This document shows, in pieces, positions 7-4,852 of a stretch of DNA of 10,433 nucleotides; position 1 is the first letter of the stretch; the number at the start of each line of letters is the position of its first letter. Below the pieces are notes generated by a model. It was not told where the DNA came from. It saw only the letters and a program-made list of their open reading frames with translations, and did not search any database. The stretch is taken from the IMG/VR virus record IMGVR_UViG_2698536657_000012, positions 1 to 10,433 of that record; one strand, given 5' to 3'. This DNA comes from a virus. Lineage: Duplodnaviria; Heunggongvirae; Uroviricota; Caudoviricetes. The position numbers and the translations under genes were made by a program.

Positions 7-252
7 TTACATCATCATGTCGCTGTCGGGTGTGGGTTCACCGCCATCTGAAGCACTCCCGTCACCCGCAATGCCTTCCGGCTCCGGAACAGCCGGTGCG
101 CCCAGCAGTTCATCCAGAATGGCATCCACTTCTGCATCAAGACGCGACTCAAGGTTCTGGCGGAGTTTCTGTTTCAGTGCGCTCAGGACTTCTTCAGAGC
201 GCAGGACTTCCTTCAATGCTTCAGCAGTGACCAGGGGTTTTACTTCTGACAT
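7..252 (-). CDS. Hypothetical small acidic protein, 82 aa from the ATG at 250-252 (MSEVKPLVTAEALKEV...); the ORF-track ORF extends to 414 but has no better start
   Basis: Complete ORF with TAA stop at 7-9; helix-like, non-repetitive composition, unlike the S/R-rich overlapping plus-strand ORFs; weak SD (GAGAAAA). Function not recognised. Confidence 0.4.
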   Translation of the reverse strand: MSEVKPLVTAEALKEVLRSEEVLSALKQKLRQNLESRLDAEVDAILDELLGAPAVPEPEGIAGDGSASDGGEPTPDSDMMM

Positions 253-277
253 AGGATTTTCTCGCTGAAAGGGGTTA

Positions 278-460
278 TTAAGGAGTAATGGGCTCTTCGG
301 GTTTGCTTCCGGCTGACTGACTGGCGCTGATTTTCTCTGCGGCCCTTTTATCAATCTGCCTGCGCCAGAAATCGCGCACTGCCCTGTACCCACCTGAAAG
401 AAGATACAGCACACAGACCGCCGTACAGAAGTACAGCATCACCTGATGAATAAATATCAT
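278..460 (-). CDS. Small predicted membrane protein, 60 aa: one N-terminal hydrophobic helix (IFIHQVMLYFCTAVCVLYLL) and a charged C-terminal tail
   Basis: ATG at 458-460, TAA stop at 278-280; strongly hydrophobic N-terminus followed by a basic/acidic tail; lies directly downstream of nanS-p in the same orientation. Confidence 0.4.
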   Translation of the reverse strand: MIFIHQVMLYFCTAVCVLYLLSGGYRAVRDFWRRQIDKRAAEKISASQSAGSKPEEPITP

Positions 461-478
461 AATTTCTTACCGTTATGG

Positions 479-508
479 TTGACAATGAGAACTGTTTTCA
501 TTTAAAAA
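479..508 (+). promoter_or_regulatory. Candidate sigma70 promoter on the plus strand: perfect -35 TTGACA (479-484), A/T-rich -10 region (TTTAAAAA, about 501-508)
   Basis: Consensus -35 hexamer with a 16-18 nt spacer to a weak -10; would start a plus-strand transcript about 80 nt upstream of the terminator at 558-594. Confidence 0.3.
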
Positions 509-557
509 ACCAATGTACGAAAGCATCTTTTCTTTATTTTCTCCATGGGTATTACCA

Positions 558-594
558 CCGCCAGCTTCCATTCCTGCCGCTGGCGGCTTTTTTT
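558..594 (+). terminator. Intrinsic-terminator-like hairpin (CCGCCAGC ... GCTGGCGG) followed by T7 on the plus strand
   Basis: 8-bp GC-rich stem with a ~13-nt loop, then TTTTTTT on the plus strand; on the minus strand it is preceded by A7 and not followed by a U-tract. It sits just 3' of the nanS-p stop codon (600-602). Confidence 0.5.
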
Positions 595-599
595 AGCAA

Positions 600-2558
600 T
601 TATGCGGCTGCTCCAGCTTTGTTTGCTTTAACTTCCACCGTATCAATAAGTACAGGGTAAGTTTCAGCAGTACCTGTAATATCCGTAATGACAAACCTGT
701 TGAGTTCATTAGCAGTATTGGCCCATTTCACCAGGTCAAACGCCTGTCCATCCACGCCATCAAACACCGGAGTAACATTAATGCTGTTACTGCCCTTAAA
801 TTTAAATGCAAGCGTATGCCAGTCATGGTCGAATGCGCCAAACGTGCCAAGTTCTTTTTGTTGATTACCTGTATGATGGTATGCAACATCAATACTGGCT
901 TTATCTGTCTGGACAAAGAAAGAACTCAGATAGCCTTCACCACCCTCACCCGGCCATTCCGCTATTCGCCAGTACAAACCAAAGGCATACTTGTTTCTGG
1001 TTGTTTCAAGATTGACGTTTTCAGGGATTTTAAACCGGACAGCAATTTCCCCGCCTTTTTCCAGTAACAGTTTTGCCTTGTCTGCAGCAATATCACAGTA
1101 CATTGACCAGGATTTCGCGCTGTTATTTTTCTCAATTCGCAGAGCTTTATTGCCGCTGTCATCAACCAGTGTGCGTCTGCCATCCATACCGTCCCAGCCA
1201 TAAGGTTTCAGCTGATTGTCCGAAGCTTTTTTGGCATCGTAGAGAATGACAGACTCCGAAGTGGCAACCGTATTTTCTTCATTATGAGCTTCAGAAGCTG
1301 GCGATGAAGAAGATGTTGGCGCCTCTTCCGGTGCTGTTACTTCTGTAATACCATTCACAAAGGCAGATGATTTACCTGCATAGGTTACAATTGCTGTTGC
1401 CAGTCGATCCGAAACGATACCTCGACGAGCCCATGAGCTAAAATGGCTATCTCTGTACTGTGACGTCCATGTTGTTGAACTATCACGCCATCTGGAGCCA
1501 TAATATCCAATAGCTTCAATATCCGGGTCTTCCTCGGGCTTATTGGTTGTAACATTTGCATTATTTTCATCCGTCATAAACGGAACAAAATAAATAGCCT
1601 TATCCGTTTTCCCTTTGTAACCACCGTACACAACTTCATATTGAGACGCGTATTTGGTTTTCCAGTAATACGTGGTATCGCCGCAAATCCAGGGGACTTT
1701 CGCAGCACTACCATATACGCATTGAGCATCATATTTCTCTAACTCAGTGCGGAAACCTTCAACCATTTTCAGGAAAAGTGCATTGTGTTCTGCATGTTTT
1801 CCGGCAGCCATATCTGCCTCACCCTGCATCCAGACAACGCCAAGAAATACGTTCTTTTTGTTTTTGTCTAATGCAGCTTTGGTTCTGGCAACCAGATCTT
1901 TATATAGAGGTGTCCCAAGCCCCCATTTTGATGATGCGTCGATTGCGCCAGAGGCTTCATAATACTGTCCTTCTGTTCCGGTACTAAAGCCTGATCCGCC
2001 ACGTCCACAAGGGACCAGCAGAATACCTGCATTAGCAGGGATAAATGGCAGTAGTTTCTTACCAATATGCAAACCCTGGCCAACACAACCGTATTCTGCA
2101 TCTTTAGCTTTGGGGTGTTTTAGCCTGGTCATATCTTCAACATCATGAAGACAATGGTCTGCCGGAATGATGTCGTTATATTTACAGGGAGTACCTCCCG
2201 GTGTCACCGTACTGCGACGCGCCAGCTGCTTAATACGCGGGTCCGGACGGTCATATGTCTCCGGCAGCGGAAGGCCTTCACCATATGCCATGCTGTTTGA
2301 CTGGCCAGCCAGCGTAATCACGTAGTAATACTCCGGGTCGCTGGTGGCGCTGATAACTGTGCCTTCTCCATCCGACGGCTTCACCACCACAGGTGTGGTG
2401 ACATCACCTTCCGCCGCAATGGCCTGCATCAGGGTATAAGGCGTGATGGCCACCGGGCTGCCAAATGGCTGCCACCCCTCCTTCAGTTTTTGAGTCAGTC
2501 GCTCCGCAAGGTCTGACGGCGACGCCGCCCTGACCACGTCATAGTGTTTAAATGCCAT
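600..2558 (-). CDS. nanS-p: Prophage-encoded sialate (9-O-acetyl-Neu5Ac) O-acetylesterase NanS-p: N-terminal DUF1737-like region, SGNH/SASA esterase core with GQSN motif, C-terminal carbohydrate-binding-like region
   Basis: 652-aa ORF with ATG at 2556-2558 and strong SD (GGGAGG); ITLAGQSNSMAYGEG esterase motif; N-terminus MAFKHYDVV typical of the family; position downstream of the tRNA/toxin locus as in Stx prophages. Confidence 0.88.
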   Translation of the reverse strand: MAFKHYDVVRAASPSDLAERLTQKLKEGWQPFGSPVAITPYTLMQAIAAEGDVTTPVVVKPSDGEGTVISATSDPEYYYVITLAGQSNSMAYGEGLPLPETYDRPDPRIKQLARRSTVTPGGTPCKYNDIIPADHCLHDVEDMTRLKHPKAKDAEYGCVGQGLHIGKKLLPFIPANAGILLVPCGRGGSGFSTGTEGQYYEASGAIDASSKWGLGTPLYKDLVARTKAALDKNKKNVFLGVVWMQGEADMAAGKHAEHNALFLKMVEGFRTELEKYDAQCVYGSAAKVPWICGDTTYYWKTKYASQYEVVYGGYKGKTDKAIYFVPFMTDENNANVTTNKPEEDPDIEAIGYYGSRWRDSSTTWTSQYRDSHFSSWARRGIVSDRLATAIVTYAGKSSAFVNGITEVTAPEEAPTSSSSPASEAHNEENTVATSESVILYDAKKASDNQLKPYGWDGMDGRRTLVDDSGNKALRIEKNNSAKSWSMYCDIAADKAKLLLEKGGEIAVRFKIPENVNLETTRNKYAFGLYWRIAEWPGEGGEGYLSSFFVQTDKASIDVAYHHTGNQQKELGTFGAFDHDWHTLAFKFKGSNSINVTPVFDGVDGQAFDLVKWANTANELNRFVITDITGTAETYPVLIDTVEVKANKAGAAA

Positions 2559-2755
2559 GAATCCTCCCGGTCGGGATAATGTTGTGAGTCAGATAAGGGG
2601 CGGGCTGAAGTCCGGAAGTTACAGGACAATGACAGAAGGAAGACTACAGCCCGCAATACGAAAAAGGCCGCGCAGTTGCGCAGAGTGATTACTGTCGGGT
2701 ATTATTCGCCAGCTGAAAAATTGATTACTTCACGTTTTGTTGTTTATTCCTTGCT

Positions 2756-2784
2756 GCCCGCATCTCACCATGCGGGCTTTTTTT
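2756..2784 (+). terminator. Plus-strand intrinsic terminator: GCCCGCAT-ctcacc-ATGCGGGC followed by TTTTTTT
   Basis: Perfect 8-bp stem, 6-nt loop, T7 run immediately 3' on the plus strand. Confidence 0.5.
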
Positions 2785-2788
2785 ATCC

Positions 2789-3059: not shown

Positions 3060-3090
3060 AGTAAAAAGGCCCACCGGAGCGGACGGGCCT
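3060..3090 (-). terminator. Minus-strand terminator-like hairpin (AGGCCC ... GGGCCT) followed by UUUUUAC
   Basis: 6-bp outer stem plus inner CCG/CGG pairs; T5 on the minus strand; lies in the spacer between the two repeat copies. Confidence 0.35.
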
Positions 3091-3275
3091 GGAAGGATAG
3101 CGGTCATGTGATGCCGGTTTCCCGGTAACTCAGCACCGGTATCTGAGTCAACGTTTTCTCTACTGGGTCATTTCCGATACGCCCTGCCTGCTGACAGGCT
3201 TTCATCACATCTGAAAATATAGCACCCTGACTGATACTGTAGTACCCAAGGTTCCAGAAACTGTGATGTATCCGG

Positions 3276-3303
3276 CACAGAAAAGCCCCTCCGGAGAGGG
3301 GCT
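3276..3303 (-). terminator. Minus-strand intrinsic terminator T2: same AGCCCCTC/GAGGGGCT hairpin as T1, followed by UUUUCUGUG; marks the end of repeat copy 2
   Basis: Identical 8-bp stem to copy 1; U-rich tract on the minus strand only. Confidence 0.5.
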
Positions 3304-3530
3304 GACGCTGCGTATCTGTATCATCATGCGCATGGTGCCGGGTGCCTCCCGGTGAGTTCAGTATCAGCACCTGAACCCGCACAGAAAGGATAAGGGATGT
3401 AACCAAACACCTGTCGCTGATATGCCCCTCCGCTCAGGGGGATTCACCATGCCAGTTTCTTTTAACAAACTCCCCGCAAATCAGACAACTGTCAACCGTC
3501 TGAATTGTGAGACATTTAAAATTTTCGGGG
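3284..3530. repeat. Copy 2 of the tandemly duplicated ~250-nt structured non-coding element
   Basis: See copy 1; conserved blocks are identical in order and offset by 486-489 nt; intervening sequence has diverged. Confidence 0.7.
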
Positions 3531-4602: not shown

Positions 4603-4679
4603 TGGTGCGTTGTACTGGATTCGAACCCGTGACCGATTGCTTAGAAGGCAATTGCTCTGTCCGGCTGAGCTAACAACGC
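4603..4679 (-). tRNA. argO: tRNA-Arg (anticodon UCU)
   Basis: 77 nt; acceptor stem GCGTTGT/ACAACGC, discriminator A and encoded CCA; D-arm GCTC...GAGC; anticodon loop CTTCTAA; T-loop TTCGAAT. Gene symbol assigned from the ileZ-argN-argO order known in Stx prophages. Confidence 0.85.
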
Positions 4680-4692
4680 AGTGTACAGATAA

Positions 4693-4769
4693 TGGACCGC
4701 CATCGAGGACTCGAACCCCGCGCAACCAGCTTCGAAGGCTGGCGCTCTATCCCGATGAGCTAATGGCGG
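4693..4769 (-). tRNA. argN: tRNA-Arg (anticodon UCG)
   Basis: 77 nt; acceptor CCGCCAT/ATGGCGG with encoded CCA; anticodon stem CCAGC/GCTGG with loop CTTCGAA; T-arm CGGGG-TTCGAGT-CCTCG. Confidence 0.8.
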
Positions 4770-4776
4770 TATGTGA

Positions 4777-4852
4777 TGGTGGCCCTTGCTGGATTTGAAC
4801 CAGCGACCTGGCGATTATGAGTCGCTCGCTCTCACCACTGAGCTAAAGGGCC
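4777..4852 (-). tRNA. ileZ: tRNA with CAU anticodon, ileX-like (tRNA-Ile2, lysidine type) rather than Met
   Basis: 76 nt; GGCCCTT acceptor stem, anticodon loop CTCATAA, T-loop TTCAAAT, encoded CCA; overall close to E. coli ileX as recalled from memory. Confidence 0.8.

Follow-up and report, generated by a model that had tools for sequence, protein, structure and literature searches.

The plus strand at positions 479 to 594 of the window, the whole stretch of 10,433 nucleotides that was analyzed here (tailed-phage record IMGVR_UViG_2698536657_000012), probably carries a complete gene, with its own promoter and terminator, for a regulatory RNA of about 80 nt. Judged from its sequence, this gene would be a paralogue of esr41, convergent with the esterase gene nanS-p, and the small membrane-protein gene beside it, DUF1378, would be a linked neighbor. 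[quoted passage not shown] Homology and position uphold the RNA unit of that description, whereas its toxin-antitoxin meaning is not supported.

The left end of the window is a lambdoid prophage late region, which is transcribed on the minus strand. The features that matter for the analysis are as follows.

7 to 252, minus strand: DUF826 gene (Pfam PF05696, E 3.8e-41), next in the late operon and ahead of the holin gene
278 to 460, minus strand: DUF1378 gene, 60 aa, encoding a single-pass membrane protein (Pfam PF07125, E 3e-36; RefSeq "DUF1378 family protein")
479 to 484, plus strand: −35 hexamer TTGACA of the predicted sRNA promoter, read directly and found in 77/80 homologous loci
502 to 507, plus strand: weak −10-like hexamer TTAAAA at 17-nt spacing, found in 73/80 loci
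514 to 594, plus strand: predicted Esr41-like small RNA of about 81 nt, based on the Rfam Esr41 match, our own covariance model and pairwise identity
536 to 549, plus strand: core AUUUUCUCCAUGGG, a putative seed that contains the anti-Shine-Dalgarno motif CUCC; its 14 nt are identical to Esr41
558 to 594, plus strand: intrinsic terminator with an 8-bp G+C-rich stem, a 13-nt loop, a C and U7, based on reading, folding and a terminator scan
600 to 2558, minus strand: nanS-p type sialate O-acetylesterase gene, 652 aa (Pfam SASA, DUF1737 and DUF6645; RefSeq "SASA family carbohydrate esterase")
2785 to 2995 and 3275 to 3481: two full copies of STnc100
4606 to 4852: three tRNA genes

In strain ATCC 25922 the gene order is DUF1378, DUF826, holin and lysozyme, and the holin and lysozyme genes also continue the operon in related records. 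The DUF1378 ORF is a late-operon neighbor and not part of the sRNA gene.

The preliminary description had proposed that a TTGACA promoter and a hairpin followed by seven T bound a plus-strand RNA of about 80 nt. Both elements are present as it claimed (479 to 484 and 558 to 594), and the RNA between them is, as a predicted gene, strongly supported by homology and position. In the terminator, CCGCCAGC (558 to 565) pairs with GCUGGCGG (579 to 586), followed by T7 at 588 to 594. The 8-bp stem was formed in the minimum-energy and the centroid structures alike, and the terminator scan reported a shorter form of the same 558 to 586 hairpin. In the centroid fold, the core AUUUUCUCCAUGGG (536 to 549) stayed single-stranded. 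The 5' end of the RNA was placed near 514 from the promoter layout, with an uncertainty of about 4 nt. At the other end, the U-run stops at 594, 5 nt ahead of the nanS-p stop codon (600 to 602, minus strand), and nanS-p and the predicted sRNA are convergent. The unit thus combines a predicted sigma-70 promoter, with TTAAAA as its −10, and a U-tailed intrinsic terminator, as Esr41 does.

We considered whether there is an RNA gene here at all, as the TTGACA could be a chance occurrence and the hairpin nothing more than a nanS-p 3' stem-loop or terminator. TTGACA is found 4 times in the window against 8.3 expected, which is no excess over chance, and a consensus promoter scan called no plus-strand promoter at 479 to 507, the reason being the poor TTAAAA at 17-nt spacing. 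Taken alone, these motifs are within chance, and the observation becomes convincing only through comparison across loci. The hairpin would also form in a minus-strand transcript. However, the T-run comes after the stem on just one strand, the plus strand, the minus strand having GGUGGUAAUACCC after it, so the terminator serves a plus-strand RNA and not nanS-p. In addition, loci whose nanS-p 3' ends differ have all kept the −35 hexamer, its spacing, the core and the terminator as conserved features, and Esr41, which has been detected experimentally, is a discrete module of this kind away from any nanS-p gene. We consider it extremely improbable that the plus strand carries no RNA gene; the fallback of the preliminary description, in which the hairpin was merely the nanS-p 3' stem-loop, conflicts with the strand of the T-run.

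The nearest characterized relative of the predicted RNA is Esr41 (RF02676; also EcOnc14), an Hfq-binding sRNA of EHEC O157:H7 that is encoded on SpLE1. Esr41 represses chuA, cirA and bfr via direct pairing (PMC5286369), in the case of chuA at the ribosome-binding site. It affects iron uptake (chuA, cirA, bfr), colicin sensitivity, motility and LEE expression, and has been described as EHEC-specific.

At gathering thresholds, the Rfam scan gave no match within 278 to 594, while a permissive scan matched the Esr41 model over its full length at 519 to 594 on the plus strand (26 bits, E 0.016). The gathering score of the family is 102 bits, compared with 26 bits here, so the RNA does not reach formal family membership; this threshold is very strict, as the family consists of sequences that are nearly identical. 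We then compared the window RNA with an Esr41 reference sequence taken from an O157:H7 genome and found that 54 of 69 aligned bases are identical (78%; z 7.6 against shuffles), with homology over the central single-stranded region and the terminator. Our own covariance model was trained on 14 distinct window-type variants together with Esr41, and its E-values are rough, with several high scorers in the training set. It matched positions 513 to 594 at 107 bits and Esr41 at 52 bits, the window and Esr41 both being among the training sequences.

The two RNAs are alike in size, about 74 to 81 nt, and in layout. Esr41 has TTGACA, 17 nt and TTATAT, with 6 nt between this hexamer and the 5' end of the Rfam model; that 5' end, 7 nt past the hexamer, was used for the promoter comparison. 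In the window the elements are TTGACA, 17 nt and TTAAAA. They share the identical 14-nt core AUUUUCUCCAUGGG and a terminator stem of the type CCGCC(A/G)GC / GCUGGCG followed by a U-run. Their 5' thirds, in contrast, are unrelated, consisting of a GAUGCUCUAGGCAUC hairpin in Esr41 and of GUACGAAAGCAUCUUUUC in the window RNA. The terminator loops differ as well. A few bases just past the U-run, TTTTTTTA-CAATT, are common to both. The genomic contexts are also distinct, since Esr41 lies on SpLE1 beside iha and the window RNA in a lambdoid prophage late region.

To analyze the conservation of the unit, we used 80 IMG/VR loci that encode close relatives of DUF1378 (88% identity or more). A convergent promoter-terminator unit is found opposite DUF1378 in 80/80 loci, with the −35 hexamer exactly 18 nt from the start codon. 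The sequence TTCTCCAT (539 to 546) is kept in 78 loci and the terminator is intact in 77. Our covariance model found an Esr41-like body in 79/80 loci, and in the sole exception, locus L165, a promoter and a terminator of this kind enclose an unrelated, longer body. Among the 14 variants, the 5' body and the terminator loop are variable, whereas the −35 hexamer, the core and the stem are fixed. The terminator stem showed no covariation among these variants because it never varies. Homology to the flanks stops right after the U-run, which is followed by at least three different esterase 3' ends, and the A-run after the −10 hexamer changes in length, so plus-strand reading frames are broken. This pattern of variation fits an RNA gene.

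Coding sequence was considered on both strands and rejected. On the minus strand, the ATGGAG mini-ORF (ATGGAGAA) could have accounted for the conserved core, yet its length varies from 4 to more than 23 codons (4, 4, 14, 14, 23 or more, and 24 or more codons across variants). The plus-strand ORFs (475 to 660, and one with its ATG at 513) were dismissed as well, the homologues having frame-breaking changes in A-run length or no ATG.

The place that the unit occupies is also informative. PasA and PasC of EPEC E2348/69 and EcOnc51 and EcOnc52 of EHEC Sakai are prophage sRNAs that lie between sialic acid esterase and holin genes; the order of sialic acid esterase, pasA or pasC, and holin has been described by Zhu, Shabalina and Storz (bioRxiv 10.64898/2026.05.13.724894), who also noted cmscan hits of Esr41 near PasD. 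According to Pearl Mizrahi et al. (PMC8550237, Table S6), PasA runs from 743499 to 743415 and PasC from 1290909 to 1290832 on the minus strand of NC_011601. We found both of them downstream of and convergent to SASA esterase genes in that genome. The 3' end of PasC is 2 nt away from the stop codon of its esterase gene. EcOnc52 of Sakai prophage Sp4, listed by Tree et al. (Table S2), has the same esterase-adjacent position and overlaps the stop codon, while PasA is one unit farther from the esterase gene, 150 to 234 nt beyond its stop codon.

The window unit has the same slot and orientation as PasC, PasA and EcOnc52: it lies between the esterase and lysis genes, is convergent with the esterase gene and ends at its stop codon. 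The promoter layout is alike too, as it combines TTGACA with a spacer that contains a CTGT motif. PasA and PasC have TTGACA, 17 nt and TCAGAA, and the 5' ends reported for them, as tabulated by their authors, are exactly 7 nt further on; the TTGACA hexamer is invariant in Esr41, PasA, PasC and EcOnc52. The length of this group (79 to 85 nt) is similar to that of the window RNA, and a GCCAGC/GCTGGC terminator stem followed by a U-run is common to both. Esr41, PasA and PasC have all been detected on Northern blots, and they are bound by Hfq or less stable without it (PMC5286369, PMC8550237, PMC9002310).

Similarity to this group does not extend to the RNA body. Our covariance model gave E 0.78 for PasC and no hit for PasA, and neither the second unit of prophage PP2 (E 0.36) nor EcOnc52 (E 0.41) scored significantly. 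Pairwise z values of the window RNA against this group were 2.7 to 3.4 and came mostly from the terminator. The cores differ, and the PasA seed is reported to overlap the PasA terminator stem. The loci of PasA, PasC and EcOnc52 have no DUF1378 gene, unlike the window. Kinship with PasA, PasC and EcOnc52 is thus suggested by position, promoter and terminator and not by the body. The esterase-lysis slot is a known home of convergent prophage sRNAs, and the window has an Esr41-like body in that slot. Very probably, then, the predicted RNA exists and belongs, as an Esr41-like member, to the esterase-convergent group of prophage sRNAs.

AgvB and AsxR, the "anti-sRNAs" of Tree et al. (2014), offer a further comparison. 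They are Hfq-bound prophage sRNAs convergent to the late operon, as the window unit is. Their positions in lambdoid prophages are conserved, and, like the window family, they join a variable 5' part to a conserved 3' part. Their slot, however, is the moron site downstream of PR' and upstream of the esterase gene, whereas the window unit is downstream of that gene. AgvB and AsxR are also shorter (51 to 60 nt) and sponge the core sRNAs GcvB and FnrS. Neither the gathering-threshold nor the permissive Rfam scan matched AgvB or AsxR in the window.

[quoted passage not shown] Pairing in the leader, for example at a standby site like that of IstR-1 on tisB, would block translation or trigger cleavage. 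The 60-aa ORF with one hydrophobic helix and a charged tail, on which this proposal was built, is indeed present at 278 to 460 on the minus strand. Its only hydrophobic stretch covers residues 2 to 20 (mean Kyte-Doolittle value 1.96), and the tail is basic, with 8 K+R and 5 D+E, a description that many phage membrane proteins fit equally well. As the preliminary description stated, the RNA is antisense to the region through which the late transcript reaches the small ORF, being fully complementary to that transcript from 54 to 134 nt upstream of the DUF1378 start codon. Linkage is tight as well, with the unit in 80/80 DUF1378 loci at the fixed 18-nt gap and the Esr41-like body in 79/80. Known type I systems such as hokW/sokW of Sp5, tisB/istR-1 and zor/orz likewise have a small hydrophobic ORF and a nearby sRNA on the opposite strand that is complementary to the upstream leader of the ORF transcript. 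By the example of tisB/istR-1, the distance from the start codon alone is compatible with a standby-site mechanism.

In such systems, however, antisense pairing at the toxin start or an overlap with the ORF is expected, and here complementarity is limited to the upstream spacer. The predicted RNA (514 to 594) stops about 45 nt short of the DUF1378 ribosome-binding site, with the start codon at 460, and overlaps neither that site nor the ORF. Pairing in trans between the unpaired 5' part of the RNA and the DUF1378 start region was no better than that of shuffles, of which a fraction of 0.74 paired as well or better; for the start regions of DUF826 and nanS-p the fractions were 0.40 and 0.82, again not above chance. 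DUF1378 corresponds to phrog_494, of unknown function, and a literature search on it found no functional data. Among the toxin families of Pfam, PHROGs and NCBIfam it has no match, nor does it match NCBIfam as a whole.

A toxin gene would also be expected to have its own promoter, and no conserved promoter was found for DUF1378, which sits within a Q-dependent late operon just ahead of the holin gene. One minus-strand promoter-like site (485 to 456) was examined and rejected, as its −10 lies over the start codon and is not conserved. This site is the mirror of the sRNA −35 hexamer combined with a TATGAT that contains the start codon, and in 71/80 homologues the second codon makes it TATGAC.

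The linkage holds in one direction only. From the ORF to the RNA it is 80/80 for the unit and 79/80 for the Esr41-like body among close relatives, whereas Esr41 (SpLE1), PasA and PasC (E2348/69 PP2 and PP5) and EcOnc52 (Sakai Sp4), that is, close and positional relatives of the RNA, exist without a DUF1378 gene. Having been sampled among close relatives, the linkage may be simple co-inheritance. Moreover, Esr41, the sole characterized homologue, acts in trans on host mRNAs. With neither overlap of the ribosome-binding site nor above-chance pairing, with relatives that have no such ORF, and with no toxin family and no conserved promoter, we consider a type I function very doubtful, and the toxin-antitoxin reading of DUF1378 and the RNA is unlikely.

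Another possibility is that the RNA acts in cis on the late operon, possibly beside a role in trans. Late transcription could be hampered by transcription that starts at the sRNA promoter and runs against it. Alternatively, RNase III could cut the 81-bp duplex and so separate nanS-p from the DUF1378, DUF826 and holin genes, by which expression of the lysis genes would be tuned, or nanS-p would be uncoupled from them. The perfect complementarity, which is a geometric result of the layout, and the fixed distance from the DUF1378 start in 80/80 loci are in line with such an effect. So is the orientation of all sRNAs of the esterase slot, which are convergent to the late operon, and the RIL-seq partners of PasA include 3' ends of esterase mRNAs (PMC8550237). 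This evidence, however, is indirect, and Esr41 works from SpLE1, where no late operon lies opposite. The sRNA body also varies between phages, and is unrelated in L165, while the late genes are unchanged, so a swappable, trans-acting cargo fits better than a tuned cis element. We give a cis-antisense function a low likelihood and treat it as a minor rival that is compatible with the main explanation.

A related view, to which we assign a lower likelihood again, is that of a dual function, in which the RNA would act in trans on host mRNAs and also form base pairs with the stretch of late transcript directly ahead of DUF1378. Gating of DUF1378, DUF826 and holin expression at a standby site or by RNase III may then serve as a brake on leaky lysis expression in the lysogen. 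Such a dual function would account for the constant distance of exactly 18 nt between the unit and the DUF1378 start codon, seen in every DUF1378 locus examined.

Returning to the favored explanation, a trans-acting, Esr41-like RNA gene, we asked how widely it occurs. By blastn, 953 of 5426 complete E. coli genomes have the window-type RNA, at 2005 places in all, and no annotated feature lay under the match in the 40 records listed. DUF1378 was found at 2670 places in 1017 complete E. coli genomes, and Esr41 proper in 695. Carriers of the window-type RNA include Stx phages such as VT2-Sakai (Sp5), where the copy lies at about 24619 to 24702 of NC_000902 on the complementary strand, as well as non-EHEC strains such as ATCC 25922. 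The Sp5 copy is absent from the listed Hfq-bound peaks of Sakai, a list of reproducible peaks that are antisense to coding regions or more than 100 bp from them. A gapped-pattern scan of genome contigs recovered Esr41 itself in Shigella flexneri among the matches listed, which were mostly chance. In viral contigs, a scan with the 14-mer ATTTTCTCCATGGG was discarded, as its 120 loci were chance matches that all lacked the longer motif; a scan with a longer pattern found one contig.

From the sequence elements, their conservation, the similarity to Esr41, the common position and the relatives without DUF1378, we infer the transcription, Hfq dependence, seed and targets of the window RNA as follows. 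Its own sigma-70-type promoter (TTGACA, 17 nt, TTAAAA) would start the RNA near position 514, and the RNA would be made in the lysogen, independent of the Q-dependent late transcript that runs in the opposite direction. The U7 tail of the intrinsic terminator would provide the 3' stem-loop and poly-U end, which is the Hfq-binding module of such RNAs according to the Esr41 and Pas papers. The unpaired core AUUUUCUCCAUGGG, with its anti-Shine-Dalgarno CUCC, may pair in trans with host mRNAs at their ribosome-binding regions and so repress them, for which Esr41 at chuA, together with its direct repression of cirA and bfr, is the precedent. Binding of Hfq and repression of chuA, cirA and bfr by the window RNA itself are putative, being proposed on the grounds of the common core. 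DUF1378 would be an uncharacterized small membrane protein of the lysis-proximal late operon, a linked neighbor rather than a toxin partner.

For annotation, the intergenic hairpin belongs to the sRNA gene and not to nanS-p. An expressed RNA of this kind would represent a third body type for the esterase-lysis sRNA slot of lambdoid prophages. Should it also have the targets of Esr41, Esr41-type regulation would be wider, and more often multicopy, than the annotated family suggests.

Features of the window considered here are listed below by coordinates and strand.
7-414, minus: alternative-frame ORF of 135 aa (ORF call)
456-485, minus: promoter-like site, TTGTCA, 18 nt, TATGAT (10/12 matches)
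2695-2785, plus: candidate convergent sRNA unit (intrinsic terminator and layout)
2756-2784, plus: second plus-strand intrinsic terminator, GCCCGCATCTCACCATGCGGGC followed by T7 (terminator scan)
2785-2995 and 3275-3481, minus: two full STnc100 copies (Rfam, 168 and 135 bits)
3061-3234, minus: degenerate third STnc100 copy (Rfam, 28.5 bits against a gathering score of 47)
3490-3495, minus: TTGACA just upstream of the distal STnc100 copy (hexamer search of the window)

The promoter-like site at the start of the DUF1378 gene is the mirror image of the −35 of the predicted Esr41-like sRNA, and the DUF1378 start codon lies inside its −10. Owing to the second codon, this −10 reads TATGAC in 71 of the 80 homologues, the IMG/VR loci encoding close DUF1378 relatives. 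Therefore, the site is probably a by-product of other elements.

We also noticed that, of the 139 positions of PHROG phrog_8301, 59-139 match DUF826 and 2-40 give a weak match to DUF1378. In VT2-Sakai (L206 2507-2926), a single 139-aa "orf43" is annotated over the stretch equivalent to 7-460 (minus strand) of the window. Together with the 135-aa ORF in the window, this means that some records appear to fuse the two small genes into a single annotated ORF.

Upstream of the esterase gene nanS-p, the three STnc100 copies stand in tandem, and the second plus-strand terminator is back-to-back with the terminator of a minus-strand STnc100 copy. Tree et al. (2014) described a "convergent sRNA pair" layout upstream of the esterase gene, and the candidate plus-strand unit and the minus-strand STnc100 copy have the same layout in the window. 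No match to the Rfam AgvB or AsxR families was found at 2695-2785 (plus strand), and the body of this candidate unit includes a GU-rich stretch, GTTTTGTTGTTTATTCC.

Downstream of the esterase gene, the E2348/69 PP2 locus (L001 2465-2735, minus strand) carries a tandem pair of sRNA units. Besides PasA, there is a unit that lies directly against the esterase stop codon and has almost the same sequence as the EcOnc52 unit of Sakai Sp4. The "minor" PasA form of 236 nt extends as far as the terminator of this EcOnc52-like unit.

In L165, a homologue locus on IMG/VR contig 2671181012_000015, the slot upstream of the DUF1378 gene, the promoter type and the CCGCCAGC/GCTGGCGG terminator are as in the window, but the RNA body is unrelated, longer (about 95 nt) and lacks the TTCTCCAT core. 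This comparison suggests that RNA bodies are swapped inside a fixed promoter-terminator frame.

When the Esr41 locus (L003 2466-2575) was compared with 479-600 of the window, the similarity began at the −35 and ended a few bases past the U-run (TTTTTTTA-CAATT). Judged by these sequence limits, this unit, about 115 bp long, behaves like a self-contained module, which would have moved between the SpLE1 island and the late region of a prophage.
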